Origin: Novosphingobium sp.
Lineage (GTDB): Bacteria > Pseudomonadota > Alphaproteobacteria > Sphingomonadales > Sphingomonadaceae
Direction: 5' to 3' (one strand)
Length of the DNA stretch: 64,000 nucleotides
NCBI RefSeq assembly: GCF_016719755.1
Contig: NZ_JADJYM010000004.1
The notes beneath the pieces are model-generated. The model was given only the letters and a program-made list of their open reading frames with translations. It had not been told where the DNA came from and ran no database searches. Of the stretch, positions 1,815 through 51,583 are shown piece after piece. Made by a program: the position numbers and the translations under genes. Numbering within the stretch: position 1 is the stretch's first letter; each line of letters opens with the position of its first letter.

Positions 1815-1912
1815 GTCTTGTTGGGAGATGCTTTAGCGCAAACTGGCACCCACTCGCAACCAATTTGCACGATTGCGAAGAAAAAGAAGCCCTAGGCTAC
1901 GCAATTTGTAGA
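1815..1912 (-). promoter_or_regulatory. AT-rich promoter island A upstream of the Rieske gene, with boxes TACGCAATT (1898-1906) and TAGCGCAAA (1834-1842)
   Basis: Local drop in GC in an otherwise GC-rich window, located upstream of a gene start, with a box shared with four other islands. No TSS evidence. Confidence 0.45.
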
Positions 1913-2404
1913 TCAGTCAGCCTCATCCCCGGCCATGTCGGCCTCGGTGATCCGCACCACCCGCGCATTGTACTTCAGCGTCTTCACCGCGATCGAGGTT
2001 TCGACATGGTGGACGCCGGGCACGGCAAGGATCTGGTCCGAGGTCAGTTCCAGCAGCCCGTCGAGCGTGTTGAACAGGCAGAAGGCGAAGATGTTGAACC
2101 GCCCCATGGTGATCATCACCGCGTTGACCGTGGGCAGATCGGCGATCTGGCGGGCAATGTCGCGCACGTTCTCCACGTCGGCCTGGACGCCGATCAGCGC
2201 CAGCTTGGCCGAATTGGCAAGACCGAAGCTGGTGATCGCGGTGAACGAGATCAGCCCATCCTGCTGGAGCCGCTTGATCCGCCCGCGCACGGTGCCTTCG
2301 GTAACGCCCAGGTCCACCGCGATCTTGCGGTTGGACACGCGCGCGTCGCGGGCCAGCACCTCGATCAGTTGGCGATCGAGATCATCAAGCTGCGGCGCGC
2401 TCAT
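1913..2404 (-). CDS. Lrp/AsnC-family transcriptional regulator
   Basis: 163 aa. N-terminal HTH LDRQLIEVLARDARVSNRKIAVDLGVTEGTVRGRIKRLQQDGLI, followed by a ligand-domain-sized C-terminus. Confidence 0.9.
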   Translation of the reverse strand: MSAPQLDDLDRQLIEVLARDARVSNRKIAVDLGVTEGTVRGRIKRLQQDGLISFTAITSFGLANSAKLALIGVQADVENVRDIARQIADLPTVNAVMITMGRFNIFAFCLFNTLDGLLELTSDQILAVPGVHHVETSIAVKTLKYNARVVRITEADMAGDEAD

Positions 2405-2886
2405 GCCCCGCTCCTCGCGTCGATCGGGGCAACGTCGAACTTGTACTTGATGACGTCTACCGCAATCGCGGGAACCAGCGAGCGGATGCCCTTCACCTTG
2501 GAAAACTTGTCGAGCAGCAGCCCCGGCAGGTCGCTGAAATCGCGCAGCACCACCAGCAGGTCGATATCATAGCGCCCGGTAACAAGGTGCGCGGCGAACA
2601 CTTCCGGAAATTCGGCCAGTTCCTCGGCCACTTCGCTTGCGGGTCGACCATCCACCTCGATCGCCACTTCCATCAGCACGTTATAGCCGTGCGCGGAAAA
2701 ATCGGACACGGCGACCACGCGCAGCTTGTCTGCCTCTTCCATGCGGCGGATGCGCGCGGAAACGGTCGCGGCGGTCAGCCCCAGGGTGTTGGCGATCTGC
2801 TGGTTGGTCGCCCGGCCATTGACGCGCAACTGCTCGACAATCGCGCGGTCCATGTCGTCGATCGTGAAGTCGTCACTCATGGCCAT
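2401..2886 (-). CDS. Lrp/AsnC-family transcriptional regulator (second of an overlapping pair)
   Basis: HTH MDRAIVEQLRVNGRATNQQIANTLGLTAATVSARIRRMEEADKL. The stop overlaps the downstream regulator start as ATGA (2401-2404). Start ATG 2886 (MAMSDD) is chosen over TTG 2916, but the start is uncertain. Confidence 0.85.
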   Translation of the reverse strand: MAMSDDFTIDDMDRAIVEQLRVNGRATNQQIANTLGLTAATVSARIRRMEEADKLRVVAVSDFSAHGYNVLMEVAIEVDGRPASEVAEELAEFPEVFAAHLVTGRYDIDLLVVLRDFSDLPGLLLDKFSKVKGIRSLVPAIAVDVIKYKFDVAPIDARSGA

Positions 2887-2951
2887 CTGCAAACCCCCAA
2901 TTGCCCGGCGCGTCAACCGCCAGCGTCCGCCCGCACGCCGTAATCCACGAT

Positions 2952-3434
2952 TCAGAAGCCGCTAAGCTCGCGCCCCAGCATTGCCGGGCCGAACGGCGCG
3001 GCCTTGCGGCGTTCGACCCACACCACTTCCAGCTGGCGCTCCGCGAACTTCCAGACCCCGCATTCCAGCGCATAGCGATCGTGATAGCGCATCGCGAAGT
3101 CGAGCAGGGTCAAGTCCTGCGGGCCTTCCCCGCCAGGCAGGACGTGGCTGGCAATCCCGGTGACATGGCCCGTCACGGTCCCGTCTGCCGCCTGTTCGTA
3201 GGTCTGGTTGAAGACGTTGTGCATGGTCGCGCCGAAGCTTGCATCGACCTCGGCGATCATCCGCGCGAAGCCTTCCGCTCCTGCATAGCGCGCCTCGGCC
3301 TGTCCCTTGCCGCGCATGATGCCGTCTCGGGTGAACAGACCCGAAAGCATCACCGCATCGCGGCTGTCCACCGCCAGGGCATAGCGATGGGCAAGATCAC
3401 GCAATGGCTGCGGGGCATCGAACGGCATGACCAT
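2952..3434 (-). CDS. NTF2-like / SnoaL_4-type protein
   Basis: 160 aa. N-terminal signature LRDLAHRYALAVDSRDAVMLSGLFTRDG is typical of SnoaL-like proteins. Confidence 0.75.
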   Translation of the reverse strand: MVMPFDAPQPLRDLAHRYALAVDSRDAVMLSGLFTRDGIMRGKGQAEARYAGAEGFARMIAEVDASFGATMHNVFNQTYEQAADGTVTGHVTGIASHVLPGGEGPQDLTLLDFAMRYHDRYALECGVWKFAERQLEVVWVERRKAAPFGPAMLGRELSGF

Positions 3435-3436
3435 GG

Positions 3437-4699
3437 CTAGCCCGCCTGTTCCAGCGTCTGCCGGTCCTGTTCGACCCGGCGCGCGGCGAGGAAGGCGGCC
3501 AGCGCCGCCGCGAAGCCGACCGGGACCACCACGCTCAGCGCAAGCCGCAGCGATTGCCCGTCATCGCCCAGCGACTGGCTGATCGCGCCGGCTGCCCAGG
3601 GGCCGATGAAGTAGCCAAGCAGGGTGGTAAAGGCGATGAACAGCGCCGTGGCGCTCGCCCGGAAGCCTGGCGGAAGCAGGTATTGCAGGGTGGCGAAGAT
3701 GCCGACCGTCCAGCCTCCGCCCAGCAGGCCGCAGGGGATCGCGATCCACATCGCCGCCTCGAAACTGGGCGCCCAGACCGCCAGCATCACCATCGCCGTC
3801 GCCGCTCCGATGGCAAGCGCGGACAGCCGCACCGGCCAGGCCGGGCCGCGCCGCGCCAGCCGGTCCGACAGGGCACCGAAGCACAGCATCCCGGCAAGGC
3901 CCGCCAGTCCGAAATTGACGGCAAAGGCCGTCTTGATGGTCACCGGATCGAGGGCAAAGCTGCGCGCGAACAGTTCCGGCCCCCAATAGCCGAAGGCCAC
4001 CCCGGACAGCGCGCCCAGCCCGAACCCGATCGCCATCAGCACAAAGCTGCGGCTGCGCGCCAGCAGGCCCGCAAGCCTGGTCAGGGCAATCGGCGGCTCG
4101 GCGGCCTGCGCCGCCCCCCCTTCGCGCGGCGGTTCGCGGACCAGCAGCAGGGCCAGACCGCCCAGCGCCACGCCGGGCAGCCCGATCGCGAAAAAGGCGC
4201 TGCGCCAGCCAAGCTCGGCGGCAATCGCCGGGCCGCCCGCCTGCCCCGCGATCTGGCCGACATAGGTTGCCAGCCCCAGGATGCCGAAGGCGATGCCCCG
4301 CCGTTCGGGCCGGAAATAGTCGGCCAGCAACGAATAGGCCGGAGCCACGAAGGCCGCTTCCCCGACGCCAACCCCAACCCGCGCCAGCGCCAGCGAGACC
4401 GGCCCGGTGGCCAGCCCGGTAGCCGCCGTGGCCAGGCTCCACATCACGCAGCCTCCGGCAATGACCCGGACGCGCGACCCGCGATCGGCCAGCCGCGCGA
4501 AGGGCACGCCCATCGCGATGTACAGCACCACGAAGGCCGGCCCCATCAGCAGGCCGATCATCCCGTCGCCCAGATCGAACTCCTGCTTGATCGGGCCGAT
4601 CAGCCCGGTCAGCAGATAGCGATCCGCGAAGTTGAAGATGTAGATGACCAGGAGCGTGCCCAGCACGACCCACGGGTTCGAGCGCGCGGGTGCCGTCAT
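3437..4699 (-). CDS. MFS transporter
   Basis: 420 aa with about 12 hydrophobic segments. Contains NFADRYLL and the loop motif FARLADRGSRVRV between TM2 and TM3. Confidence 0.85.
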   Translation of the reverse strand: MTAPARSNPWVVLGTLLVIYIFNFADRYLLTGLIGPIKQEFDLGDGMIGLLMGPAFVVLYIAMGVPFARLADRGSRVRVIAGGCVMWSLATAATGLATGPVSLALARVGVGVGEAAFVAPAYSLLADYFRPERRGIAFGILGLATYVGQIAGQAGGPAIAAELGWRSAFFAIGLPGVALGGLALLLVREPPREGGAAQAAEPPIALTRLAGLLARSRSFVLMAIGFGLGALSGVAFGYWGPELFARSFALDPVTIKTAFAVNFGLAGLAGMLCFGALSDRLARRGPAWPVRLSALAIGAATAMVMLAVWAPSFEAAMWIAIPCGLLGGGWTVGIFATLQYLLPPGFRASATALFIAFTTLLGYFIGPWAAGAISQSLGDDGQSLRLALSVVVPVGFAAALAAFLAARRVEQDRQTLEQAG

Positions 4700-5457
4700 C
4701 AGTCGCGCTTGATCAGGCCGCCGTTGACGTGCCAGACCTGCCCGTTGACCCAGGCGCCATCGTCCGAGGCAAGGAAGGCTACCGCTGCGGCGATGTCTTC
4801 CGGCTGGCCCAGCCGGGTGTGCGGCACGGTCTTCAGCGTCGCCTCGACATATTCGGGGGTCAGGTGCTGGGCGACTGCTTCGGTCAGGACCACGCCGGGG
4901 CAGATGCCGTTGGAGCGGATGCCCTTCTTGCCGTACTTCGCGGCAACATGGCGGACCAGCGCGTGCAGCGCGTTCTTGGTCATCGGGTAGGCAACCTGGA
5001 AGGCGTTACCGCCGATTGCCGCGCCGGAAGAGGTGTAGATCATCGCCCCGCCGCCGCGTTCCAGCATCACCGGCAAGGCCGCCTGCGTGGCGAAGACGTG
5101 GCTCTTGCTGTTGATCGCAAAGGAACGGTCGAGCACTTCCTCGGTGCAGTGGAGCGCGTCGATGTCGCCCTCGGTCCCGCCCGCGAGGTTGGAATGATAG
5201 AAGTCGAGCCCGCCGAATTCGTCGAGCGCGGCCTGGACGATGGCCGCTTGCGATGCCGCCTTGGTTCCATCCAGATGCACGCCCACGGCGCGCCCGCCCG
5301 CTTCGCGGATCGCGGCGGCAACCTCGTTCGCCCAGGCCTCGGTAATGTCGCCGATCACCACGGCGGCGCCTTCCTCGGCCAACCGGCGCGCAGTCGCCGC
5401 GCCAATCCCGCGCCCGCCGCCCGCGACCACGCCCACCTTGCCATTCAAACCGCGCAT
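4699..5457 (-). CDS. SDR-family oxidoreductase
   Basis: Glycine-rich loop VAGGGRGIGAA and catalytic YPMTKNAL. The stop shares 1 nt with the MFS start (TGATG). Confidence 0.9.
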   Translation of the reverse strand: MRGLNGKVGVVAGGGRGIGAATARRLAEEGAAVVIGDITEAWANEVAAAIREAGGRAVGVHLDGTKAASQAAIVQAALDEFGGLDFYHSNLAGGTEGDIDALHCTEEVLDRSFAINSKSHVFATQAALPVMLERGGGAMIYTSSGAAIGGNAFQVAYPMTKNALHALVRHVAAKYGKKGIRSNGICPGVVLTEAVAQHLTPEYVEATLKTVPHTRLGQPEDIAAAVAFLASDDGAWVNGQVWHVNGGLIKRD

Positions 5458-5486
5458 CGTATCACTCCATCTGGTCGCCCGCGCGC

Positions 5487-6584
5487 TCAGCGCGCCGAGG
5501 CGGGAACTCCGTCGCCGCCCGCGTAGAAGCGGGAATAGAACTTGCGGAAATGCGGGATCGGGCCGTCACCGTCGCAAATGATCGGGTTGGGCTCGAAGCG
5601 CATCCGGTCCCACACCACCTTGTCCTGATCGAGCTGCTTGTTGACATCGCGGATGATCGCCCGCGCCACCCCGGCAGCCGGGCCTTCGGCCTGTTCGCGC
5701 GGCTGGGTGTAGCAATAGACCACCTGCAACTGATCCAGCTCGACCGGAATGATGCAGGCCACCAGCAGCGTTTCGCAGATCCCGGTAAAGCGCACCCAGG
5801 CCTGCCCCGGCCCCATCGAATTGCTGGTGATCGTGCCGTCCACCACGCCCTTGGGCGTGCCCATCCGCGCGCGGACGATCCCGCAGCGATCCCATTCGCC
5901 CCAGGAAAGCTCGGCCTCGGGCACTTCGGCGGTGCCGTGGATGTACTTGAAGTGGGCGAAGTCCACCCCGTTTTCAGCCATGTTCTGCAGGCTGCCGAAG
6001 ACCTTCCATTCAGCGAAATCGAACGGCGTCCAGGCCGGATCGCTCGTCTCGGGCAGCACGGCCACATCATAAAGCGGAGCGGCGTCCTCGGGGTGATACC
6101 AGACCCACAGCCACTGGTTCGCCTCGCGGATGTGCCAGTTGCGGGTGCACTTGCGCTTGACCTGCGGCGGCACGGCGCGGGCATAGGGGATGTCCTTCAC
6201 GGTACCCTCGTCCCCGTCATAGCGCCAGGCGTGGAACGGGCATTCCAGCAGATTGCCGGCCACCTTGCCGCCGTGGCCCATGTGCGCGCCCAGGTGCTTG
6301 CAATAGGCATCCAGCATCCGCACCTGCCCGTCCTCGCCGCGCCAGACAGCCAGATCGCGCCCGAAATAGCGCGCCGGCTTGACCTCGCCCACAGCCAGAT
6401 CGCGCCCCAGCATGAACGGATACCAGCCGAACGGAAAGCCGACGTCGAGGTTGCGCGTCTCTGGCGCGGGGCGCCCGGCGAGGTCCGCCACGCGCCATGC
6501 GGCCAATTCCTCGCGGCTCATCTTTTCCAGCACCTGCCACACCGCCACGGGAGGGGTGCGCGCGTCGTTCGCTGCCTGGGTCAT
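5487..6584 (-). CDS. Rieske [2Fe-2S] non-heme-iron oxygenase, KshA-like paralogue
   Basis: CKHLGAHM...CPFHAWRY and ENGVDFAHFKYIH. Start ATG 6584 (MTQAAN) has GGGGAGA 7 nt upstream. The track ORF extends to 6644. Confidence 0.85.
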   Translation of the reverse strand: MTQAANDARTPPVAVWQVLEKMSREELAAWRVADLAGRPAPETRNLDVGFPFGWYPFMLGRDLAVGEVKPARYFGRDLAVWRGEDGQVRMLDAYCKHLGAHMGHGGKVAGNLLECPFHAWRYDGDEGTVKDIPYARAVPPQVKRKCTRNWHIREANQWLWVWYHPEDAAPLYDVAVLPETSDPAWTPFDFAEWKVFGSLQNMAENGVDFAHFKYIHGTAEVPEAELSWGEWDRCGIVRARMGTPKGVVDGTITSNSMGPGQAWVRFTGICETLLVACIIPVELDQLQVVYCYTQPREQAEGPAAGVARAIIRDVNKQLDQDKVVWDRMRFEPNPIICDGDGPIPHFRKFYSRFYAGGDGVPASAR

Positions 6585-6618
6585 CGTTGTTTCTCCCCGG
6601 ATTATCCGGCTTTTATGG

Positions 6619-7485
6619 TTAGAGCTTGAACAGGCGCTCGGCATTGCCGCGCAGGAACTTCGGCCAGACCTCGTCCTTCAGCGGCACGTGCTCCATGTCG
6701 GCCATGATGCGTTCCAGGCTCAGCCCCATCGGGAAATAGCCCGCGTAGATCACCTTGTCGGCGCCGCGCGTGTTGGCATAATCGATGATCGCCTTGGGGT
6801 AGTGCTTGGGGGCGAAGGCGCTGGTCGAATAATAGAGGTTCGGCCACTTCAGCATCAGCTTGACCGCCAGATCCTGCCACGGCTCCGCGCCGTGGCGCAT
6901 CACGATCTTGAGATCGGGGAAAAACCAGCAGACCTCGTCAAGATGCTCGACCTTCTGGGTTTCCATCGGGATGCGCGGGCCAGGGATGCCGACGTTGAGC
7001 AGGATCGGAATGTCCAGTTCCACCGCGCAGGCATAAAGCGGGAACATGTACTTGTGGTTGATCGCCACCTGCGGCAGCGTTCCGGCCGGGAACACCGAAA
7101 TGGCGGACAGGCCGACCTCGGCATGGATGCGCTTGATCCGGCGCACTTCCTCCATCCCCTTGTTGGGATCGCAGGGCAGGTCGAAGAAGAACCGGTCGCC
7201 GTAAAGCTCCTTGGCCCGGCGCGACGTCTCGTTATCGTTCCAGCCGATCAGCGCCTTGGCGATGCCGTGCTTGTCCATCTGCTCGACCGTCCACTTGACG
7301 TAATCGTCGGCATGGCCGGTCTGCGGCACGTCCTTGAACATGTACTGCGCCGGCATCGAGAACTGCTGGAGCGTCTGGGCGTCCTTGATCAGCGGGCGGA
7401 ACGCGGTGAACCAGTCGGACCGGTCCTCCGCCTCCGGAATCCCCAGCATGCAGTCGATGATCCCGATATCCCTGGGCATGGCCAT
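6619..7485 (-). CDS. Amidohydrolase_2 (ACMSD/LigW-type TIM-barrel) family protein, non-canonical N-terminus
   Basis: Overall pattern IGIIDCMLGIP...KIVMRHGAEPW...YAGYFPMG. Start ATG 7485 has AGGAGA 8 nt upstream. The usual N-terminal H-x-H is replaced by D-C-M-L. Confidence 0.65.
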   Translation of the reverse strand: MAMPRDIGIIDCMLGIPEAEDRSDWFTAFRPLIKDAQTLQQFSMPAQYMFKDVPQTGHADDYVKWTVEQMDKHGIAKALIGWNDNETSRRAKELYGDRFFFDLPCDPNKGMEEVRRIKRIHAEVGLSAISVFPAGTLPQVAINHKYMFPLYACAVELDIPILLNVGIPGPRIPMETQKVEHLDEVCWFFPDLKIVMRHGAEPWQDLAVKLMLKWPNLYYSTSAFAPKHYPKAIIDYANTRGADKVIYAGYFPMGLSLERIMADMEHVPLKDEVWPKFLRGNAERLFKL

Positions 7486-7486
7486 G

Positions 7487-10743: not shown

Positions 10744-10744
10744 G

Positions 10745-11641
10745 TCAGTAGACCGCCGCCGGGTTCTTGGGGCGCGGGCTGCCCAGCATTTCGCGGTAGG
10801 AGGGACGTTCGCTCCCCCGGTCGGTCACGCCCAGTTCGCGCGCGATCTCCGCAGCGATCAGGGTCTGGCCGGACAGTTCGTCGCGGTTGGGCGCGGTCGA
10901 AATCGCATCGATGATGTGGGCTGTAAACTCGGGGTTTTCGGCCGTTTCGATGAAGCCCTCGTACTGCTCGGGATTGGTCTTTTGCGCGATCAGCGAACGT
11001 TCGGTGACCAGCGGTCCCATCCAGATCGACACCGCGATCACCCCGGTGCCGCGCAGATCGTGCTCCATGTCGTGAGCGAACTTGTCGATCCCGGCCTTCT
11101 GCGCGCCATAGGCCGGCCCGTGCATGTAGCACGACCCGCCGAACGACGATCCGAAGGCGATCGTGCCGCTGCCCTGGCGGACCATCATCCGCGCCGCATG
11201 CCAGCTGGCGACATAGGCCGAGCGCAAACCGACATCGAGGATCTTCACCGCGTCGAGGTCCTTCTCCCAGAAGGGCTTCTTCTCGATCAACTGGTGGTGG
11301 ATAAAGGTCGCGTTGTTGACCAGCACGTCGAGCCGGCCCTGCTCGCGCTCGATCCGCTCGAACAGCGCGGCAACCTGTGCGTCGTCGCCATGGTCGCACA
11401 TCACGGCAATGCCCTTGCCGCCCGCTGCGGTAACTTCGGCAGCGGTTTCGGCGACCGTTCCGGGCAGGACGGTCCCGTCCCAGCCCTTGGCATCGCCAGG
11501 CGCGACCGTGCGGCCGGTGACATAAACGGTATAGCCCAGTTCCCCGAAGCCGCGCGCGATTCCGCGCCCCGCGCCCCGGCTTGCCCCAGTAACCAGTGCA
11601 ACCTTTGCCGCCACCACCCGCTCTCCCTCGATTCGACGCAT
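10745..11641 (-). CDS. SDR-family oxidoreductase
   Basis: VTGASRGAGRGIA and YGAQKAGI. Start ATG 11641 (MRRIEGE) is preferred. The track ORF starts at TTG 11713 inside AT-rich non-coding-looking DNA. Confidence 0.8.
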   Translation of the reverse strand: MRRIEGERVVAAKVALVTGASRGAGRGIARGFGELGYTVYVTGRTVAPGDAKGWDGTVLPGTVAETAAEVTAAGGKGIAVMCDHGDDAQVAALFERIEREQGRLDVLVNNATFIHHQLIEKKPFWEKDLDAVKILDVGLRSAYVASWHAARMMVRQGSGTIAFGSSFGGSCYMHGPAYGAQKAGIDKFAHDMEHDLRGTGVIAVSIWMGPLVTERSLIAQKTNPEQYEGFIETAENPEFTAHIIDAISTAPNRDELSGQTLIAAEIARELGVTDRGSERPSYREMLGSPRPKNPAAVY

Positions 11642-11755
11642 TGACGCGCTCAATTTTCCAATAAACGATGATTTGCGAATTTCAAATAACATTATTCTAC
11701 GCAAATGCAGCAAGAACCCTCACGCCGCAGCCGTCACTGCGAAGCCATGATCCGG
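11642..11755 (-). promoter_or_regulatory. AT-rich promoter island B, with inverted ATTTGCG (11671-11677) / CGCAAAT (11700-11706) and exact TACGCAAAT (11698-11706)
   Basis: Read directly. It lies upstream of the first gene of an 8-gene minus-strand operon. Confidence 0.5.
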
Positions 11756-13218: not shown

Positions 13219-13361
13219 ATCGCGTCCTCTACCCACTGGATTCGTAATTTGATCGTTATTGAATTACGCATTAGGTTGACATAGGCGCCATTACAACGTC
13301 AATTGCGTTTCGATTCCGGCTTCACAATTGCCGGACCATATCGAGGGAATCGGGAGCGGGC
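13219..13361. promoter_or_regulatory. AT-rich divergent promoter island C, with TTCGTAA (13241)...ATCGTT (13252)...TACGCATTA (13265-13273) and AATTGCGTT (13301-13309)
   Basis: Read directly, between divergent SDR genes. The ordered sub-motifs are shared with island E. Confidence 0.5.
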
Positions 13362-14135
13362 ATGAGCCAGGATCTGAGCGGCAGGGTAGCCATTGTCACC
13401 GGCGGAAGCGACGGCATCGGCCTCGCCACGGCGGCACTTTTGGCGCGGCGCGGCGCGCGGGTGGTAATCTGCGGCCGGCGGCAGGAACTGCTGGACAGCG
13501 CGAAGGCGCAGATCGAGGCCGAGGGCGGCCAGATCGAGGCGGTGCAGCTTGACGTTACCGACTTTCCCGCGTTCGAGGCGCTGATCGAGGATGTCGCCGC
13601 GCGCCATGGCCGGCTCGACATGCTGGTCAACAATGCCATGTCGACCCATTACGCCCCGATCAGCCGGCTGAAGCTGGACCACTGGCGCAAGGACTTTGCG
13701 GTCAATGCCGATGCCGTGTTCGTCGGCACCAAGGCGGCGATGAAGGTGATGGCGGCGCAGGGCAAGGGCTCGATCGTCAACATTTCCTCCACCACCGCGA
13801 TCCGCGCGATGGCCAACTATTCCAGCTATTCCGCCTCCAAGGCGGCGCTGATCCAGTTCACTGCCGTCGCGGCGATGGAAGGCGCGCGCCAGGGCGTGCG
13901 GGTCAACGCGATCGTGCCCGGGCAGGTCAACACCGCCGCCACGCTAGACTTCGCCACCAAGGCACCGGAACTCGCCGCCAAGACCGCCGAGGCAATCCCG
14001 ATGGGGCGCGGCGGACGGCCTGAGGAACTGGCCGAGGCGATCGTCTTCATGCTGTCGGATGCGGCCAGCTATATCACCGGGGTGGCACTGCCGGTCGATG
14101 GCGGCAAGTCGGTCCAGCTCTACATTCCGTCCTAA
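13362..14135 (+). CDS. SDR-family oxidoreductase
   Basis: VTGGSDGIGLAT and YSASKAAL. Confidence 0.9.
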   Translation: MSQDLSGRVAIVTGGSDGIGLATAALLARRGARVVICGRRQELLDSAKAQIEAEGGQIEAVQLDVTDFPAFEALIEDVAARHGRLDMLVNNAMSTHYAPISRLKLDHWRKDFAVNADAVFVGTKAAMKVMAAQGKGSIVNISSTTAIRAMANYSSYSASKAALIQFTAVAAMEGARQGVRVNAIVPGQVNTAATLDFATKAPELAAKTAEAIPMGRGGRPEELAEAIVFMLSDAASYITGVALPVDGGKSVQLYIPS

Positions 14136-14149
14136 GGGGATAAGTGGCG

Positions 14150-15844: not shown

Positions 15845-15865
15845 GCCCGCCGCCTTCCCCCCAAA

Positions 15866-15886
15866 CCCCTCCCCGCCGGGGAGGGG
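15866..15886. repeat. Stem-loop CCCCTCCCC-gcc-GGGGAGGGG (9-bp stem); REP-like, possible bidirectional terminator
   Basis: Read directly, between convergent genes ending at 15844 and 15897. Confidence 0.6.
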
Positions 15887-15896
15887 CCATGCTTTC

Positions 15897-19650: not shown

Positions 19651-20990
19651 GGGCCGATCCTTTCGATGGCGGGCAAACGGTAACGTCCTTCGAGCGCTTC
19701 GGCGCGCGGCAGGTAGAGCCGCATCACAGCGTGGAACGCGCCCGGCGGCACCGGCAGCCAGTTCGACGCGCCTTCGCGCGGGCGGATGTTCGAGAGAACG
19801 AGGGTGAGCGATCCATCCTTGCCGTATTTCAGGCCCCCGGTCCGGTCGCCGATCGCATAGCGGCGGATCGGGTTGGCGATCAGCTGCGAGGTGGCGCGGT
19901 CATAGGCTGTCAGCGACCAGAAGGCGTCGACCGGCGGCAGCGCGCCCCTGGCGAAACGGAGGCGGTAGCTGCGCTTCCCGTCCAGCGGCTCGCCCCGATC
20001 GTCCGTGATCGCGGCGGGATAGATCGATTCCTCGGGCGCATTGACATAGCCGCCGCGCGCGACTTCGGCGCGCAGCAGGAAATCGTCGCCCGGATCGGCC
20101 ATGGCGCCCGACCACATCCAGCCGTTGTCCACTCGCCGCGGCCGGAAGCCGCGCTTGCCAAGGACCTGTGGCCCGACCTTCAGCGCGCAGCCCAGCCCCA
20201 GTTTCTGCGCATCGGACAGCTTGCCCGCGTCGAACTGTGCGCCGGGGCCAAAGCCCGCGACATCGAACTGGGCCATCAGCGCGGTTTCGCCCGGCTTGGC
20301 GGGAACCGAGCGCAGCGCCCGGTTGAGCAGATCGAAGTAGGCGAGGCTGTCGAACGGCTGAAGCGGGGCGGCTTCGCTGACCGGTTCGCCTGCGGCGCCG
20401 TTCATCCGGATCGCCTGGGCAAGCCGCCGGGCCTCGGCTAGGTCAGTCTCTCCTGTAACCAGCACGCGGCCGAGCATCCAGGCCGTGTCGGTCGGCAGGC
20501 GGAACGCGGTGTAGCCTTCCGGCACCGCCCCGCCGGTTGGCCCGACCAGCGCATAACGCGCCGCCTTGCCGCCATTGGTCCGCGTGCCCAGATGCCATGG
20601 CCTGGCATAGAGGTCCATGAAGGCCAGCGTGTAATAGCGCCTGCCCATGTCCGGCACGTCGAGCAGCACCGGCCCTTTCGACAGGTCGATCCAGGCGTTG
20701 AGGTACAGCGTGTCGGAATTGGCCGCGCGCAGCTGGCCCTGTGTCTCAGGGGTCAGCAGATGCGGATAGACCGCGATCGTGTTGACCGGCGCCACCACCG
20801 GCTGGTCCGCGCTGACCCGGTGCGTTTCATTGAAGCGCTGCTTCAGCAGATCGACCAGTGGGTAGCCATAGATGTAGCCCTGCAAGCCAATCGACTGCGC
20901 CAGCGCGGCCTCAGGCTCCAACGCCGCGGCCTGGCACTGCGATGCCTCGGGAAGGGCGGAGGCCGCCACGGCAAGCGCAAGTCCGAACAC
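19647..20990 (-). CDS. DUF1254/DUF1214-like two-domain protein with hydrophobic signal-like N-terminus
   Basis: GYIYGYPLV (DUF1254-like) and DAFWSLTAYD (DUF1214-like). GTG start at 20990 with GGAGGGG immediately upstream. N-terminus VFGLALAVAASALPEA. Confidence 0.7.
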   Translation of the reverse strand: MFGLALAVAASALPEASQCQAAALEPEAALAQSIGLQGYIYGYPLVDLLKQRFNETHRVSADQPVVAPVNTIAVYPHLLTPETQGQLRAANSDTLYLNAWIDLSKGPVLLDVPDMGRRYYTLAFMDLYARPWHLGTRTNGGKAARYALVGPTGGAVPEGYTAFRLPTDTAWMLGRVLVTGETDLAEARRLAQAIRMNGAAGEPVSEAAPLQPFDSLAYFDLLNRALRSVPAKPGETALMAQFDVAGFGPGAQFDAGKLSDAQKLGLGCALKVGPQVLGKRGFRPRRVDNGWMWSGAMADPGDDFLLRAEVARGGYVNAPEESIYPAAITDDRGEPLDGKRSYRLRFARGALPPVDAFWSLTAYDRATSQLIANPIRRYAIGDRTGGLKYGKDGSLTLVLSNIRPREGASNWLPVPPGAFHAVMRLYLPRAEALEGRYRLPAIERIGP

Positions 20991-21142
20991 ATCCCCTCCA
21001 TTTGCGTAGTGTTATTTTCTCCTTGCTACGCTATCGTATTTCTAATTGCGTTACAATTGCTATTCGCGTATTTATGGAAATCAGTTTCTACGCATAATGA
21101 CCCGGCCCTCAGAGCCGGGCCGTGCGCATGAGGGAGGGAATC
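20991..21142. promoter_or_regulatory. AT-rich divergent promoter island D with five TACGC-type boxes
   Basis: ATTTGCGTAG 21000-21009, CTACGCTAT 21026-21034, AATTGCGTT 21044-21052, ATTCGCGTA 21062-21070, TACGCATAA 21089-21097. It lies between the DUF1254 operon and the TonB receptor. Confidence 0.55.
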
Positions 21143-23461: not shown

Positions 23462-23466
23462 CCGCG

Positions 23467-23961
23467 ATGACGCTGGAACAGCGGCTCCAGCGGCTGGAGG
23501 ACGACCGCGCGATCCGCGACCTCAAGGCCCGCTACCTGCGCGCCTGCGACGGCAAGGACCCGGAAATGGTCCGCGACTGCCTGCTGCCCGAAGGGGCGGT
23601 GATTGCCTATGACGGCTTTCCCGCCTTCGCCGGCCGCGACGGCTTCGTCGCGGTCTATGCGGAAATGGGCTGCGTCCCAGGCGTGTTCGACATCCACCAC
23701 GGCGCCAACGGGGTGATCGGCTTCGACGGGCCGGACCGCGCCCGGGGGCAATGGTCGCTGCTGTTCCACACCATCAACCTCGTCTCGCGCACGCTGACGC
23801 AGATGGGGGTCGAGTACGAGGACGTCTATGTCCGGCAGGACGGTCGCTGGTGGATCGCCGAGACGCGCTCGCGCCGCCAGTCCTGCCTGATCCACGCGGT
23901 CGATGCCGATGGTCGGCCCACGGTGACAGTCATGGGCGAGCCACCCGCAACATTCGGATAG
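23467..23961 (+). CDS. NTF2-like / SnoaL_4-type protein
   Basis: 164 aa. Signature RLQRLEDDRAIRDLKARYLRACDGKDPEMV. ATG lies 5 nt after the receptor stop. It is the 3' part of the track ORF 22759-23961. Confidence 0.75.
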   Translation: MTLEQRLQRLEDDRAIRDLKARYLRACDGKDPEMVRDCLLPEGAVIAYDGFPAFAGRDGFVAVYAEMGCVPGVFDIHHGANGVIGFDGPDRARGQWSLLFHTINLVSRTLTQMGVEYEDVYVRQDGRWWIAETRSRRQSCLIHAVDADGRPTVTVMGEPPATFG

Positions 23962-23973
23962 GGAGGAAAGGCC

Positions 23974-24714
23974 ATGCGCTTTGCAGGCAAGAAGGTGCTG
24001 GTAACGGGCGCGGCCTCGGGGATCGGGCGGGCCACCGCCTTGCTCTTCGCGCGCGAGGGGGCCATGCTGACCATCGGCGACATCAACGAGGCGGGCCTGG
24101 CTGAAACCGCCGCAATGATTGGCGGCACCGTAAGGGCTGTTCCCTATGATGCGGAAGACCATGCCTCGTGCCGCGCGCTGGTCGAGGCGGCGAGCGCAAA
24201 TGGCCTCGACGTGCTGTGCAATGTCGCGGGAATGCTCAAGTGGGGGCCAACCGCCACCTATGCGGTGGAAGATTTTGAGCGGCTGCTGCGGATCAACACG
24301 ACCAGCGTCTTCGTGCTGTGCCAGGCGGCGCTGCCGCACCTGCTGGCAACGAAGGGCAACATCGTCTGCGTGGCCTCGACCGCCGGGCTTTCCGGCATTC
24401 CCTATTCGGTTGCCTATTCCGCCTCGAAGCACGCGGTGGTCGGCATGATCAAGTCGATGGCGCTGGAATATGCCGCTGCGGGCGTGCGGATCAACGGGGT
24501 CTGCCCGGGCCAGGTCGCCACCCCGATGACCAGGGCTGCACCGCCGCAGGGCGAGATCGACTGGCCGCTGGTGATGCGCAACGTGCCCAAGCTGGCCGAT
24601 GGCATCTGCGATCCGGAAGACATCGCCGAAGCGCTGGCCTTCCTCGCCTCAGACGCTTCGCGCAAGACCACCGGCGCGCTGCTGGCGGTGGATGGCGGAC
24701 AACTGGCGGGCTGA
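23974..24714 (+). CDS. SDR-family oxidoreductase
   Basis: VTGAASGIGRAT and YSASKHAV. GGGAGGAAAGG lies upstream of the ATG. Confidence 0.9.
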   Translation: MRFAGKKVLVTGAASGIGRATALLFAREGAMLTIGDINEAGLAETAAMIGGTVRAVPYDAEDHASCRALVEAASANGLDVLCNVAGMLKWGPTATYAVEDFERLLRINTTSVFVLCQAALPHLLATKGNIVCVASTAGLSGIPYSVAYSASKHAVVGMIKSMALEYAAAGVRINGVCPGQVATPMTRAAPPQGEIDWPLVMRNVPKLADGICDPEDIAEALAFLASDASRKTTGALLAVDGGQLAG

Positions 24715-24759
24715 ACGCGGCCCCGCACACCCCTCTCCGTTCCTTCCGGGCGTAGGGGG

Positions 24760-25224
24760 TTAAGGGTTGCGCGAATCCAGCAATGCCTGCGCCGCCTCGC
24801 TGCCATCGAGCAGCCGGTTGTCGCGCCGCGTGACCCACCAGCCCTGCGCGCTGCGCGCCAGTTCCCAAAGGTTGGCGGAAACGCGCACGGCCCGCCAACC
24901 CTCTCCCTCCCGGGCGAACACCACGCTGTGGCAGCGCGCCTTGGCAAGGTCGCCGTGAAGGTCGATGGCGGGGGATGTGAGAACATGGGCGCAGCCCTGT
25001 GCCATCAGCGCGCGGTGGACCGGGCCATCGATCAGCGCGGCGATGGCTGCGCGCCCTTTTGCCTCGCCCATGCCGCCCACGGCATAGACCGCATCTGGCG
25101 CAAACAGCGCCGCCACTCCCGCCGCATCACCGCTGTCGGCCAGCGGACCATAGCGGGCGATCAGGTCGCGGATCGCCTCACGGTCTTCCAGGGCGCGCAG
25201 GCGCTCGGCAATCCGTTCAGCCAC
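24760..25224 (-). CDS. NTF2-like / SnoaL_4-type protein
   Basis: 154 aa. Signature RLRALEDREAIRDLIARYGPLADSGDAAGVAALF. 8-nt overlap with the upstream flavoprotein gene. Confidence 0.75.
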   Translation of the reverse strand: MAERIAERLRALEDREAIRDLIARYGPLADSGDAAGVAALFAPDAVYAVGGMGEAKGRAAIAALIDGPVHRALMAQGCAHVLTSPAIDLHGDLAKARCHSVVFAREGEGWRAVRVSANLWELARSAQGWWVTRRDNRLLDGSEAAQALLDSRNP

Positions 25225-26677
25225 GCGCGGCCTTGCGCCCGGCCTGCCGCCCGAAGAAGGTGCAATCGGCCAGGCTCAGGCCGGAGGAATAGCCATGCCC
25301 CCAGGCCGGCAGGCCGGACGTGCAGCGCCCCGCCGCGAACAGCCCCGGAATCGCCGCGCCATCCCGCCCCAGCACTTCGCCATCGGTGCTGGTGCGCAGC
25401 CCGCCCAGCGTGAAAAAGCTGAAATAGCTCGACTGGAAATTGAGTTCGAGCGCGACGAACGGCCCCTGATCGAGCGGGGTCAGGATCGGTGCCCGCTTGC
25501 CGAACAGCGGATCGCGCCCTTCACGCGCGTGCTCGTTATAGACCGCCATGGTCGCGCTGAGCGTGCCCTTCGGCATTTCCAGCTCGGCCTCGACCTCTTC
25601 CCAGCTGTCACCCGTGCCGGCGATGGAAATCCGCGCGAAGTCCATCGGCTGGACGAAATGGGCCATGTCGAGCAGCAGGTAGACCTTGCCCCCCGGCTGA
25701 TCCACTGCGCAGCGGCTGACCCGGCCATGATAGCAGTCCTCGTTGATGAAGCGCTGGCCCTGAACGTTGACGAACACGCCGTAAGCGTGGCTTTCCGGCA
25801 TGGTCCAGGGGCAGGTGGTGAAGAACTGGTCCATGTGGATCGCATCGCCGCCCGCACCCAGGCCCAGTTCGATGCCGCCGCCGTCGTCCTTGTCGCCGAT
25901 CGGATCGTTGAGCTTGAAGGTGTCGGGGCAATGCTTGCGGCGCATCGCCTCGTTGAACACGAAGCCCCCCGTGGCCAGCACCACGCCCTTTTCCGCCTTT
26001 ACGAAGCGCGGCTGGTTGTCGATCCGCACCACCACGCCGACGATCCGCCCGCCGTCCTGCACCAGCGCCAGCGCACGGGCATCGACCACCACCTCGACAC
26101 CTTCGGAGAGCGCCGAAGCCTCCAGAATATCGACCAGCGGACGCCCCCCGCCCCAGCCCATATGCTGGATCACATGGCCGCGCGGCGCCGGTTTCGCCAG
26201 GTCGCAGAACGGGGCCGCAGCCTCGCTCCCCGACCAGATCAGGGTTGAATCGTCGGTCGGCTCGATGTGTTTGCCGGGCAGGTAATTGCCGCGATAGGGC
26301 ACCCCTTGCGCTTTCAGCCAGGCGAAGTGGTTCAAGGCCTCGCGCCCGTAGATCTCGCACTTGGCCTCGTCGGCGCAGGGACCTCCAGCCAGCTTGAGGT
26401 ATCGCGTAAAGTCTTCGGTCGTGTCCTCGAACCCGGCGGCGCGCTGGGCATCGCTCCCGCCGCCCCCGCCGATGTAGATTTCCCCGCCCGACAGGCCCGA
26501 GGCTCCGCCGCTGCCCGAATTGCGCTCGAACAGCATAACCCGCGCACCTGCATCGGCGGCTTCGATCGCCGCGCAGGCCCCCGCCGCGCCAAAGCCGATC
26601 ACGGCGACATCGGTTTCGTAATCCCAGTGCGCTACCTCGGCAGCGGGATAGGGACGGTGCAGCGAGATTTCAGGCAT
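25217..26677 (-). CDS. FAD-dependent dehydrogenase (KstD / 3-ketosteroid Delta4-dehydrogenase / fumarate-reductase flavoprotein-like)
   Basis: TDVAVIGFGAAGACAAIEAADAGARVMLFERNSGSGGASGLSGG. Start ATG 26677 (MPEISL). The track ORF runs upstream into the neighbouring gene. Confidence 0.8.
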   Translation of the reverse strand: MPEISLHRPYPAAEVAHWDYETDVAVIGFGAAGACAAIEAADAGARVMLFERNSGSGGASGLSGGEIYIGGGGGSDAQRAAGFEDTTEDFTRYLKLAGGPCADEAKCEIYGREALNHFAWLKAQGVPYRGNYLPGKHIEPTDDSTLIWSGSEAAAPFCDLAKPAPRGHVIQHMGWGGGRPLVDILEASALSEGVEVVVDARALALVQDGGRIVGVVVRIDNQPRFVKAEKGVVLATGGFVFNEAMRRKHCPDTFKLNDPIGDKDDGGGIELGLGAGGDAIHMDQFFTTCPWTMPESHAYGVFVNVQGQRFINEDCYHGRVSRCAVDQPGGKVYLLLDMAHFVQPMDFARISIAGTGDSWEEVEAELEMPKGTLSATMAVYNEHAREGRDPLFGKRAPILTPLDQGPFVALELNFQSSYFSFFTLGGLRTSTDGEVLGRDGAAIPGLFAAGRCTSGLPAWGHGYSSGLSLADCTFFGRQAGRKAARG

Positions 26678-26685
26678 CGTCTGGC

Positions 26686-27180
26686 TCACAGGTAGGCACC
26701 GTCCTGGTAGATCAGCGGGGCAACATCCTCGCTCACTTCGGCGCTGAGGACACGGGCGATGACGATGGAATGGGTGCCATAGGCCAGCATGGCATCGATC
26801 ACGCAAGACAGATTGGCCTGCGCGCCCGCCAGCATCGGCACACCATTCGCACCGTCGTGCCAGTCCCCGATCCGGAAGCGCTCCTCCTGCGCGATGCCCC
26901 CGCCGAAGGCTGCGGAAACATCCTGCTGGCTCCGCGAAAGCAGGTTCACCGAAAGCGGCGCGGTCGGCACCAGCAGTCCGTGCAGCGCGGTCGCGCGGTT
27001 GACGCAGATCAGCACCGCCGGAGGGTCGGCGGTCAGCGAGGTAACCGATGTCGCCGCCATGCCGACCGGGCCGGATTCTCCCCGCGCGGCAACGATCGCC
27101 ACTGCCGAGGCGAGCCGCCGCATCGCGGCGCGAAACCGCGCGGGCAGTTCCTCGGCCACCAGAGGATAGCCGTCAGCCAC
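26686..27180 (-). CDS. Flavin reductase domain protein (HsaB/TesA2-like reductase component)
   Basis: 164 aa. FRAAMRRLASAVAIVAA...GMAATSVTSLTADPPAVLICVN. GTG start overlaps the hsaD-like stop by 8 nt. Confidence 0.8.
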   Translation of the reverse strand: MADGYPLVAEELPARFRAAMRRLASAVAIVAARGESGPVGMAATSVTSLTADPPAVLICVNRATALHGLLVPTAPLSVNLLSRSQQDVSAAFGGGIAQEERFRIGDWHDGANGVPMLAGAQANLSCVIDAMLAYGTHSIVIARVLSAEVSEDVAPLIYQDGAYL

Positions 27181-27991
27181 GCAGGAATTCCAGGCAGTGG
27201 CGGTTGAACTCCTCGGCGCGCTCGACCTGCACCCAGTGACCGGTGCGGGTGAAGGTCATGCAGCGGGCATCCTGGCACAGGTCCAGGAAATGGCGTGCGC
27301 CGCTTTCCGGGCAGAACTCGTCATTGAGCCCCCACAGCACGAAGACCGGCACTTTCAGCTCGCCCAGACGCGGGCCAAGGTTTGGGGTGCGCATCCGCAT
27401 CAACACGTCCTTGGGCTGGGTGCGGGCAACCGCAAAGCGTTCCTCAACCAAGGCCTCGGGGATATTCGGCGCGAAATCGGGATGGACGAGATTGCCGATC
27501 AGGCGGCGCTGCTCGTCCAGGTTGAAGTCCGGCCCGCCGAAGTTGGACACCATCCTGGTGATCCCCGGCATCTTGAAGTAGTCGGCCTGCTCCTCGACGC
27601 AGCCCGGCGCCATCAGCACCAGCCGCTCGGCAAACTCCGGGTGGTCGAGCGTCAGCTGGATCGCCACACCGCCGCCCAGCGAGTTGCCGACCAGCGTCGC
27701 CCGTTCGATCCCGTGGGCACGGAGCGCCTGGTAGAGCGTGTCGGTGAACAGCTGCAGGGTATAGTCGATACCCTCCGGCTTGGACGAAGCGCCATAGCCG
27801 ATCAGGTCCGGCAGGATCACCCGATAACCGGCCGCCACGAATTCCGGCCAGTTCTGGCGGAAGTTCGACGCGCCGGACGCGCCGGGTCCGCTGCCGTGGA
27901 CGAAGACCACCACCGGTCCTTCGCCCGCTTCCTTGAGGTGGATCGAATGGCCGCCCTCGACCGCATAGGTCGCTTCGCGAAGCTGGGTCAT
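27173..27991 (-). CDS. hsaD: Alpha/beta-hydrolase, meta-cleavage product hydrolase (HsaD/TesD-like)
   Basis: HGSGPGASG oxyanion region and GNSLGGG nucleophile elbow, 272 aa. Flanked by hsaA-like and flavin reductase genes. Confidence 0.75.
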   Translation of the reverse strand: MTQLREATYAVEGGHSIHLKEAGEGPVVVFVHGSGPGASGASNFRQNWPEFVAAGYRVILPDLIGYGASSKPEGIDYTLQLFTDTLYQALRAHGIERATLVGNSLGGGVAIQLTLDHPEFAERLVLMAPGCVEEQADYFKMPGITRMVSNFGGPDFNLDEQRRLIGNLVHPDFAPNIPEALVEERFAVARTQPKDVLMRMRTPNLGPRLGELKVPVFVLWGLNDEFCPESGARHFLDLCQDARCMTFTRTGHWVQVERAEEFNRHCLEFLRG

Positions 27992-27999
27992 GGCGCGCC

Positions 28000-29214
28000 T
28001 CAGAGAAAGGGGTTGAGCGGATCGGCACCCAGCATGGTGCCGATCGCATCGCCGGTGCGGTTGTTGGGATCGTTGGCCACGTGGGCGCGGCCCGCGTGGA
28101 GATCGAGCCAGGGCTGGATGATCTCGCTACTGGTGTAGATCGCCCGCCCGCCCAGCAGCTGCACCACATCGTCGATCAGCCCGGCGAGGCGCCGCACCAC
28201 CGTGGCCGACTGGTAGGTATAGAACGCGCGCTTCTCCATCGGGATGGCCTCGCCGCGCTCCGCATAGCCCATCAGGTCCTCGAAGGTCAGGCGCAGGGTG
28301 GTCTCCATCTCGCCCTTCTCCGCGATCGCCCGGGCCAGCGCGGCGTGGAGGATCGGGTCGGCCTTCGATGCCTTGCCGGTGTTGGTCGAAACGCGGTCCT
28401 GCATGATCGCGAGGCCCGCATTGATCGCCGCCTGCGCGCCGCCAAAGGCCGCGGTGGAGACCGAACGGGTGAAGACCTGCGCCCAGGGCAGGCGATAGAG
28501 CGGACCGGTGTTCACTTCCTGCCCGGGGTTCTGGCAGAGGAACCCGTCGATCGAGCGGTGAGTACGGTAATCGGGCACAAACACGTCATCGACGATGATG
28601 TCATGGCTGCCGGTGCCCTGCAGGCCGAATACGTGCCACGCGTCCTCATCAATCGCGTAGTCGCTGCGCGGCAGCAGGAAAGTGCGCATTTCCGCCGGGG
28701 TACCATCGTCCTTCGGCGGGCAGAACGCACCGAGCAGCACCCAGCCGCAATGGGTCGATCCGGTCGAGAAGCCCCAGCGCCCCGACAGGCGGAATCCGCC
28801 CTCGACATGGGTAACCTTGCCGACCGGCTGATAGGTGGAAGAAACCAGCATCGCGGGATCGGCGCCCCACACCTCTTCCTGCGCCTGGTCATGGAACAGC
28901 GCCATCTCGTAAGGGTGGCAACCGACCACGCCGTACATCCAGCCGGTCGACATGCAGCCTTCGGCCAGCGCCTTCTGCACATCGAAGAACACGTTGGGGT
29001 GCATCTCGTAGCCGCCCCAGCGACGCGGCTGGAGGATGCGGAAAAAGCCCGCTTCCTGCATCTCGGCAATCGTTTCGGCAGGCACGTTGCGTTCGCGGGT
29101 GCATTGTTTTGCACGGGATTTCAACACCGGGATCATCGCGCGGGCACGGGCAACGAGTTCCCCGGCGGTGGGCGCGGTGGCCATGCTGTCGATCTGCTGC
29201 GCGGCGGTAGCCAT
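28000..29214 (-). CDS. hsaA: Two-component flavin-dependent monooxygenase, oxygenase subunit with acyl-CoA dehydrogenase fold (HsaA/TesA1-like)
   Basis: 404 aa. FFRILQPRRWGGYEMHP...GSHDIIVDDVFVP. Context: reductase and hydrolase in the same operon, extradiol dioxygenase in the divergent operon. Confidence 0.7.
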   Translation of the reverse strand: MATAAQQIDSMATAPTAGELVARARAMIPVLKSRAKQCTRERNVPAETIAEMQEAGFFRILQPRRWGGYEMHPNVFFDVQKALAEGCMSTGWMYGVVGCHPYEMALFHDQAQEEVWGADPAMLVSSTYQPVGKVTHVEGGFRLSGRWGFSTGSTHCGWVLLGAFCPPKDDGTPAEMRTFLLPRSDYAIDEDAWHVFGLQGTGSHDIIVDDVFVPDYRTHRSIDGFLCQNPGQEVNTGPLYRLPWAQVFTRSVSTAAFGGAQAAINAGLAIMQDRVSTNTGKASKADPILHAALARAIAEKGEMETTLRLTFEDLMGYAERGEAIPMEKRAFYTYQSATVVRRLAGLIDDVVQLLGGRAIYTSSEIIQPWLDLHAGRAHVANDPNNRTGDAIGTMLGADPLNPFL

Positions 29215-29394
29215 TTCTCCCGACTCCTTTGTCTCGACTCATGCCGCTCAATTCGACGGCTTCGTAAAATTTTTTATCGTTTGATACGCAAATCGTCAAT
29301 TGAAAACCCGTTTCGCTTCCGATAATGCGCATTTCATACAGGATTGAAACCGCGATTCCGCGAAGGACGCATTTTGGAAGGGGGAACAGCCGGC
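29215..29394. promoter_or_regulatory. AT-rich divergent promoter island E, with TTCGTAA (29261)...ATCGTT (29276)...TACGCAAAT (29285-29293) and ATGCGCAT (29325-29332)
   Basis: Read directly, between the hsaA-like operon and the 19-gene plus-strand operon. Confidence 0.5.
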
Positions 29395-51532: not shown

Positions 51533-51583
51533 CAAGGTTGCTTCCCCGTCAATCACCGGCTTGCCCTGCTTTCATTGAGGGCT

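Follow-up and report, generated by a model that had tools for sequence, protein, structure and literature searches.

An inverted repeat with an 18-nucleotide spacer is a likely shared operator of steroid and bile-acid catabolic operons in sphingomonads

Operons of a steroid/bile-acid catabolic gene cluster in Novosphingobium sp. (contig NZ_JADJYM010000004.1) are preceded by copies of a 36-base pair (bp) inverted repeat, TTGCGTA-N18-TACGCAA, here called the dyad. The stretch of DNA analysed, 64,000 nucleotides (nt) in length, is referred to as the window. The dyad is specific, has a strict spacer of 18 nt (rarely 19), is conserved at orthologous promoters and is restricted to steroid-type regions. 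It is likely to be the operator of a dedicated oligomeric transcription factor that co-regulates the steroid/bile-acid catabolic operons of sphingomonads. Such a factor would recognize the dyad on double-stranded DNA, and its targets would be the operons for KshA; CoA ligases, a KshA-like protein, an MFS transporter and Lrp proteins; SDR and KstD; DUF1254, P450 and DUF3604; a TonB receptor; HsaADB and KstD; and HsaC, IpdAB and HIP beta-oxidation.

These genes were assigned with a Pfam scan of 60 open reading frames (ORFs) of the window. The cluster encodes KshA, two Lrp/AsnC proteins, an MFS transporter, SDRs, a KshA-like Rieske protein and CoA ligases, followed by KstD, DUF3604, P450 and DUF1254/1214 proteins, a TonB-dependent receptor, HsaA/B/C/D, IpdAB and the HIP beta-oxidation genes. 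An earlier note on this DNA, made from the letters alone, had described a recurring 9-mer box (TACGCAAAT) in five AT-rich promoter islands (designated A to E below), and had read it as a common operator of the KshA, ligase/Rieske, SDR/KstD, P450/TonB and Hsa/Ipd operons. The islands are real dips in GC content (0.50–0.56 versus approximately 0.67) and sit at operon starts in the Pfam gene map. All strings and coordinates given in that note are correct and the boxes are genuine, but the 9-mer is not the unit, as the pairing of the boxes had been overlooked. When each TACGCA is aligned with the DNA upstream of it, every one proves to have a partner TGCGTA-like hexamer at a distance of exactly 18 nt. 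The boxes are therefore the two arms of a 36-bp dyad, which is the actual unit (extended consensus wwTTGCGTA-N18-TACGCAAww).

Six dyads are present in the window, all with an N18 spacer: one each in islands A, B, C and E, and two in D. Dyad A (1871–1906; GATTGCGAA-N18-TACGCAATT; 21.6 bits) lies 7 nt past the stop codon of the gene for Lrp1, one of the two Lrp/AsnC proteins, and upstream of KshA. Dyad B (11671–11706; ATTTGCGAA-N18-TACGCAAAT; 24.0 bits) precedes the minus-strand SDR/ligase/KshA-like/MFS/Lrp operon. Dyad C (13238–13273; GGATTCGTA-N18-TACGCATTA; 19.0 bits) is located between the divergent genes SDR3 (minus strand, start at 13219) and SDR4/KstD1 (plus strand, start at 13362). In island D, dyad D1 (21000–21035; ATTTGCGTA-N18-TACGCTATC; 22.2 bits) is immediately adjacent to GGAGG, the ribosome-binding site of the DUF1254/1214 gene, whose GTG start codon is at 20990, while D2 (21062–21097; ATTCGCGTA-N18-TACGCATAA; 24.4 bits) starts 62 bp after D1 and ends 45 nt before the ATG of the TonB-dependent receptor (21143). 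Dyad E (29258–29293; GGCTTCGTA-N18-TACGCAAAT; 18.5 bits) is in a second divergent region, between the HsaA-like gene (minus strand, start at 29214) and SDR6/HsaC/IpdAB with the genes that follow (plus strand).

The scores are those of an independent matrix, trained on sites of other genomes only and used with a neutral background. This matrix ranks the six dyads first among all sites in the window (18.5–24.4 bits), the seventh-best site reaching 7.4 bits. A search for TGCGTA-N18-TACGCA with up to two mismatches likewise returns six matches, each with one mismatch and all inside the islands, where 1.22 are expected in the window; none of 100 shuffles reached six. The box itself recurs above chance, as had been estimated, with three occurrences of TACGCAAAT versus 0.17 expected and no shuffle of 100 reaching three. 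Counting both strands of the 64 kb, the TACGCA/TGCGTA hexamer has seven occurrences, six of them inside the five islands, versus a mean of 0.30 and a maximum of 4 in dinucleotide-shuffled islands.

Every copy lies inside an AT-rich island, and the recurrence could accordingly be read as a by-product of promoter composition or of recent promoter duplication. Composition-matched shuffles, however, never attain the observed values: 0 of 2000 dinucleotide-preserving island shuffles reach the observed dyad score for any island. The six spacers, although all AT-rich, are mutually unrelated in sequence, and the arms are kept across species in which the spacers have fully diverged. The island shuffles, the spacer statistics and the distribution on plasmid pNL2 (both described below) refute this explanation, to which we assign next to no probability.

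Conservation was assessed by scanning a genome collection with the DUF1254/1214 protein as anchor. This yielded 61 sphingomonad loci from isolates and metagenome-assembled genomes (these and further related loci are numbered with the prefix L where they are named below), at 59–90% protein identity and mostly syntenic with the window. The dyad is kept at the orthologous promoters of most of the approximately 60 loci, whereas spacers and flanks diverge. The spacer length is nearly fixed: in a scan for arm pairs over 1.04 Mb with spacers of 0–40 nt, 97 of 143 matches have a spacer of 18; a search with the arm cores only gives 140 matches at N18 versus 3–32 at other spacers; and over 1.42 Mb, with spacers of 10–27 nt and a threshold of at least 15 bits, N18 accounts for 160 sites, N19 for 16 and any other spacer for 0–6. 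A non-redundant logo of 76 sites has high information in the arms only, the spacer being AT-rich without conserved sequence; it is two-fold symmetric, with both arms equally conserved. Each arm (TnCGnA) is itself quasi-palindromic, and its orientation is thus set by positions 2 and 5 only. Of the 17 cases of neighbouring double dyads in the 1.42 Mb, 16 have an offset of 62 bp.

In the related loci, the matches coincide with the orthologs of islands B, C, D and E. For islands A and E only a few orthologs are available, and in these the conservation holds as well: an equivalent of dyad A directly follows Lrp1 in L062–L066, L068 and L079, and dyad E is kept in L057 and on pNL2, the latter at 388210 and 326471. 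Island E is not informative as a footprint because its single ortholog (L057) is nearly identical. The regulon also reaches past the left edge of the window in related genomes, where dyads are found at the SDR|OYE, KshA-like|BaiCD-like, TonB receptor and SDR1 promoters. A direct-repeat variant, TACGCA-N18-TACGCA, in which the left arm has the opposite orientation, is present in L065 at approximately 24683–24712 (approximately 231.7 kb on pNL2) and is followed by TTGACA.

Alignments with orthologs at islands A to D have conserved arms amid diverged spacers and flanks. For island B (21 sequences), the upstream DNA cannot be aligned and both arms are conserved; island C (35 sequences) has invariant arms around a variable spacer; for island D (approximately 20 sequences), D1 and D2 are both conserved. 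The proposal of a common operator for the five groups of operons is thereby supported computationally, by the island shuffles together with retention of the motif at orthologous promoters amid diverged intergenic DNA.

Not every variant box listed earlier belongs to the motif: some are arms of dyads, and several represent promoter elements or fortuitous matches. TAGCGCAAA at 1834, which lacks a partner arm and shows no conservation, was ruled out as a copy. The same applies to AATTGCGTT at 21044 as a third TACGCA-type box, since orthologs keep only its GCAAT, as part of ATTGC-N3-GCAAT. Islands C and E had further been said to share an ordered string; its coordinates are accurate, but the ATCGTT occupies different registers in the two spacers and most island C orthologs do not keep it, and it was discarded as a shared element.

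Arms that are complementary over up to 9 nt, several of them in probable 5' untranslated regions (UTRs) beside ribosome-binding sites, could also fold into a functional hairpin in RNA or DNA, for example a 5'UTR stem of the mRNA, an attenuator, a processing site or a repetitive extragenic palindromic-like element. At core arm positions 4, 5, 8 and 9, however, only 1 of 160 deviations is compensated in the other arm, and conservation is toward the consensus rather than toward pairing, which makes a hairpin unlikely. The mismatched arm pair of island B (TGCGTA/TCCGCA) is stable over approximately ten species, dyad C lies upstream of the -35 element of one of its two target operons, and the same motif serves both strands. 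We regard the hairpin as an extremely improbable explanation.

Several blocks in the alignments resemble core promoter elements. In island B, a -35-like TTTGAAA is found at the end of the spacer and a -10-like TATAAG approximately 5–6 nt beyond the proximal arm. Dyad C is followed after 2 nt by TTGACA (13276–13281, plus strand), the putative -35 of the SDR4/KstD1 promoter, which is conserved as GTTGACA in all orthologs; 17 nt on is TCAATT (13299–13304). The conserved block CGTCAATTGCGTT (13297–13309, plus strand), which contains AATTGCGTT at 13301, may be either the -10/start region of this promoter or a third arm, in everted orientation, that starts 36 bp past the right arm. The other arm of dyad C is approximately 10 nt from the SDR3 ribosome-binding site. 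Between D1 and D2, ATTGCGTTACAAT (21045–21057) corresponds to ATTGC-N3-GCAAT in orthologs and probably represents two back-to-back TTGCnn -35 boxes of divergent promoters. The gene-distal arm of D1 is conserved as gATA(G/T)CGTA, giving a -10-like TAnCGT 17 nt after TTGCnn, and its gene-proximal arm touches the GGAG of the ribosome-binding site.

Since a strict scan for sigma-70 promoters and terminators found nothing in any of the five islands, the promoter positions rest on these conserved -35- and -10-like alignment blocks. The empty scan is compatible with another reading, namely that the arms are the -35 and -10 elements of promoters for an alternative sigma factor, for example one of the extracytoplasmic function (ECF) type. 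TTGCGT and TTGCGA do look like a -35 box, and CGTA-type -10 elements occur in ECF promoters. Promoters are asymmetric, however, whereas the dyad is two-fold symmetric with equally conserved arms, and in unidirectional contexts (A and B) only one copy is present. Under this reading, transcription would start on or past the ribosome-binding site at D1 and C, and nothing is conserved 16–18 nt upstream of either arm. The only sigma factor gene of the window belongs to an EcfG/PhyR general-stress locus, and EcfG-type promoters have a different, known motif. Dyad arms as sigma factor promoters are thus very unlikely.

If the dyad is an operator, its positions suggest how it might act. At several sites (D1, C with respect to SDR3, B, and the SDR5 sites of other genomes), the dyad is flanked by putative core promoter elements on one side and the ribosome-binding site on the other, and the proximal arm of dyad B lies between the -35-like and -10-like elements. 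For this reason repression is favoured: the factor is probably, though by no means certainly, mainly a repressor that would act by occlusion or as a roadblock, and a pathway metabolite would lift the repression. Two points count against this reading. Dyads A and C (for the plus-strand operon) precede the putative -35, where an activator could also act, so that activation at some promoters is possible; and the strict promoter scan gave no hit on which the positions could be anchored.

Three further elements were noted in the islands. The block AATGCGTCGAATC (11630–11642, minus strand), in the 5'UTR of operon B, immediately before the ribosome-binding site of its first gene, is nearly invariant over approximately 20 species, more so than the surrounding 5'UTR, and has a half-site-like TGCGTC core. 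A GC-rich hairpin, CCCGGC-cctcaga-GCCGGG (21101–21119), separates D2 from the ribosome-binding site of the TonB receptor gene, in what is probably its 5'UTR; orthologs apparently have a stem of other sequence in the same place. Finally, CTGGCAC-N5-TCGCA (1843–1858) resembles the -24/-12 elements of sigma-54 promoters, with the spacing one base off, and points into the 3' end of Lrp1. This match was rejected as a sigma-54 element: it is not conserved in the island A alignment and is probably due to chance.

The distribution of the dyad was also determined over the whole of plasmid pNL2 of Novosphingobium aromaticivorans (487,268 bp, assembled from 11 stretches). The plasmid has 18 N18 dyads, 15 of which score at least 15 bits, versus 0–2 at other spacers. 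All 18 are intergenic and fall within a 167-kb segment (221–388 kb) that also holds all four Lrp/AsnC pairs of the plasmid. No dyad is found in the other 320 kb of pNL2, despite the many SDR, TonB-receptor, NTF2 and dioxygenase genes there, which are accompanied by TetR, LysR, MarR and LuxR regulators. The divergent promoter of one of the Lrp pairs itself contains a dyad. The promoter of another pair has two everted arms with starts 35 bp apart, equal to the offset of the inner arms of D1 and D2.

The best candidate for the regulator, as a predicted binder only, is the pair of Lrp/AsnC genes of the window. Lrp1 (1913–2404, minus strand), the candidate subunit nearest dyad A, is a full-length Lrp/AsnC protein with a helix-turn-helix and a RAM domain, as indicated by Pfam and by its relatives in the PDB. 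Lrp2 (2401–2916, minus strand) is a second Lrp/AsnC protein, 29% identical to Lrp1, and its stop codon overlaps the Lrp1 start by 4 nt. This overlap suggests translational coupling and a heteromer. Sequence searches of the PDB with Lrp1 and Lrp2 return generic Lrp/AsnC relatives only, and neither protein reaches any NCBIfam equivalog cut-off. Orthologs of Lrp1 with 77–99% identity are present in many sphingomonads. The recognition helix of Lrp1, TEGTVRGRIKRL, is invariant in Novosphingobium, Sphingomonas and Altererythrobacter, and Sphingobium has one N-cap substitution (GVT to GVN).

The arrangement of the pair is itself conserved. Lrp2 followed by Lrp1 with a 4-nt overlap also occurs in L062–L064, L068 and L079, and on pNL2 and in Novosphingobium sp. 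ES2-1 the overlap is 1 nt (L066 is unannotated). In an APW14-like contig, Sphingomonas lacunae and Altererythrobacter sp. H2, the order is Lrp2-Lrp1-KshA with a dyad just after Lrp1, while N. aromaticivorans and Sphingobium retain the Lrp pair and the downstream dyad with another gene next. A plasmid collection contains megaplasmids and chromids with Lrp1 homologs at 61–73% identity, and in Novosphingobium sp. KACC 22771 the order is again Lrp2-Lrp1-KshA, with eight dyads in the 20 kb to either side. Pairs of this kind in related strains include SARO_RS18940/18945, which has paralogs, and NCHOL11_RS15860/15865. On pNL2 (loci L065, L071 and L073), two Lrp1 proteins are identical (WP_011906860.1). 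At least three of the four pNL2 pairs consist of one Lrp2-type and one Lrp1-type gene, a recurrent pairing that suggests a family of obligate heteromers.

Several observations link the pair to the dyad. It contains the only regulator genes in the cluster of the window, and is the only regulator shared by the clusters of the window, L062–L064, pNL2, KACC 22771 and Sphingobium; as the only regulator conserved with the motif, these Lrp/AsnC proteins are reasonable ones to test. In two Sphingobium strains, dyads at the same positions have shifted arms (TkCGGA-N18-TCCGmA), and the same two strains have substitutions at the start of both recognition helices. On pNL2, a permutation test for the proximity of dyads to Lrp pairs gives p = 0.003. 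The pair is at the distal end of a dyad-controlled operon in the window, L062, L065, L068 and L079, which is consistent with autoregulation.

Other observations weigh against the Lrp pair. The co-localization on pNL2 is confounded, as both dyads and pairs lie in the steroid-gene region. No dyad is found directly upstream of the pair in L062–L064. Plasmid p1 of ES2-1 (L067, 183765–224247) carries a nearly identical Lrp pair, adjoined by non-steroid genes and an RND efflux system, with no dyad within 20 kb on either side; this plasmid also has further Lrp-like places. The form of the site is a further difficulty. Canonical Lrp/AsnC sites are 13–15-bp palindromes (abcde-W3-edcba) with 5-bp arms, bound by a single dimer. 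The half-site centres of the dyad, in contrast, are 24 bp apart, a misfit to a single dimer; each 9-mer arm is asymmetric, and the regulator would be a heteromer of two gene products. The only 5-3-5 palindrome is the ATTGC-N3-GCAAT between D1 and D2, better read as the -35 boxes described above. Features that do resemble Lrp/AsnC systems are the AT-rich spacer and the Lrp/AsnC genes embedded in the regulated cluster, and the fixed phase of the double sites may be another. Given a real operator, we consider the chances that the Lrp pair is the factor that binds it to be about even.

The points just listed for L062–L064 and ES2-1 count in favour of a rival reading, in which the operator is genuine and is bound by some other, unlinked regulator, either a protein with widely spaced DNA-binding domains (PaaX-like) or a LysR, IclR, LuxR or TetR protein of the steroid region. 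The 6-N18-6 architecture, atypical of Lrp/AsnC, resembles the long-spacer operator of PaaX (PMC9493321), and the steroid segment of pNL2 also encodes LysR, TetR and LuxR-like regulators. Against this, no other regulator is common to the window, L062–L064, pNL2, KACC 22771 and the Sphingobium clusters; Pfam finds no PaaX-like, GntR, TetR, LysR or IclR gene among the window ORFs scanned; and the Lrp pair lies inside or adjoining a dyad-controlled operon, with the exception of ES2-1 plasmid p1. The homologous cluster of Caenibius tardaugens has a TetR gene in place of the pair. An unlinked regulator is a possible but rather unlikely alternative to the Lrp pair.

The dyad was compared with the operators of known systems. 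It resembles those of the TetR-family regulators KstR and KstR2, which govern actinobacterial cholesterol catabolism, in that one palindromic operator is repeated across the intergenic regions of steroid operons and defines a pathway-wide regulon. In those systems, a pathway intermediate or coenzyme A (CoA) thioester relieves repression (PMC8399759). The operators differ, those of KstR and KstR2 being short contiguous palindromes (TnnAACnnGTTnnA and AnCAAGnnCTTGnT, respectively). The KstR pattern has a single match in the window, at 38056 in coding sequence and at chance level, the KstR2 pattern has none, and neither occurs in the islands; the earlier statement that the box fits neither operator thus holds. 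No TetR domain was found among the 60 ORFs scanned, and KstR homologs are reported to be absent from bile-acid-degrading Proteobacteria (PMC8399759).

The PaaX operator of E. coli and Pseudomonas (TGATTC-N27-GAATCA) similarly consists of 6-bp inverted half-sites separated by a long, non-conserved spacer. PaaX is a phenylacetyl-CoA-responsive repressor, and its operators overlap catabolic promoters (PMC9493321). The likeness is in architecture only, as the half-site sequence, the spacer (27 versus 18 nt) and the pathway are different. TesR, TeiR and HsdR of Comamonas testosteroni are also proteobacterial regulators of steroid degradation (PMC8399759). They are of the LuxR, kinase-linked and LysR types, however, and the cluster of the window has no such gene. 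To our knowledge, no motif is common to the dyad and these regulators.

Regulation of bile-acid and steroid degradation in Proteobacteria has been described as largely unknown (PMC8399759). Two contiguous Lrp/AsnC genes of Sphingobium sp. Chol11 were noted, and not characterized, in a 2026 paper (PMC12882949). Our literature search found no description of the dyad motif and only passing mention of an Lrp/steroid/sphingomonad regulator motif, and in full texts the 9-mer matched nothing but unrelated primers and oligonucleotides. As judged from its sequence and distribution, the dyad is most likely a regulon operator with an unusual long-spacer architecture for which we found no published description.

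If the Lrp pair is the factor, the active form would be a heteromer of the translationally coupled Lrp1 and Lrp2 (1913–2916), which would be autoregulated through the position of their genes at the distal end of a dyad-controlled operon. The double dyads bear on how such a protein might bind. With an offset of 62 bp, their arms would start at 0, 27, 62 and 89, a mean step of approximately 30 bp. Lrp octamers have a pitch of approximately 30 bp, and this phasing would suit DNA wrapped on an Lrp-type octamer with heterodimers alternating in orientation. In such a non-canonical mode, adjacent heterodimers would alternate and make one specific contact each, producing the steps of 27 and 35 bp and the 62-bp repeat. 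We tentatively propose, as a reading that we hold at somewhat below even probability, that heteromeric Lrp1/Lrp2 is the master switch of steroid/bile-acid catabolism in sphingomonads, probably as a metabolite-relieved repressor with this binding mode.

Other features of the window were recorded. A SnoaL/NTF2-like ORF (23466–23961) occupies the apparent gap between the TonB receptor and SDR5, and these three genes are therefore probably co-transcribed in the window as a single operon; in several other genomes, SDR5 is served by a separate dyad. The HsaB-like and KstD2 genes are adjacent in the window (26686–26806), while their homologs are approximately 2.7 kb apart in most related loci (L002–L015 and others), so that either the window has lost DNA or the other genomes have gained it. 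The general-stress locus at 48–54 kb is unrelated to the steroid genes and has no dyad. It consists (50692–54235) of an EcfG-like sigma factor (50692–51381, minus strand), a CHASE/HWE histidine kinase (51434–53341, plus strand) and a PhyR-type anti-anti-sigma response regulator (53333–54235, minus strand).

A conserved operator makes the question of steroid regulation in these bacteria experimentally concrete, with many species to choose from, 18 intergenic sites on pNL2 and a named candidate pair. It also delimits a regulon, which helps in assigning functions to its DUF1254/1214, DUF3604, P450 and TonB receptor members, and it offers possible parts for steroid-responsive biosensors or for de-repressed biotransformation strains. 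Should the Lrp heteromer prove to be the factor, this would be the first defined regulon and regulator of steroid degradation in Alphaproteobacteria, and the dyad would represent a new DNA-recognition architecture for the Lrp/AsnC family.

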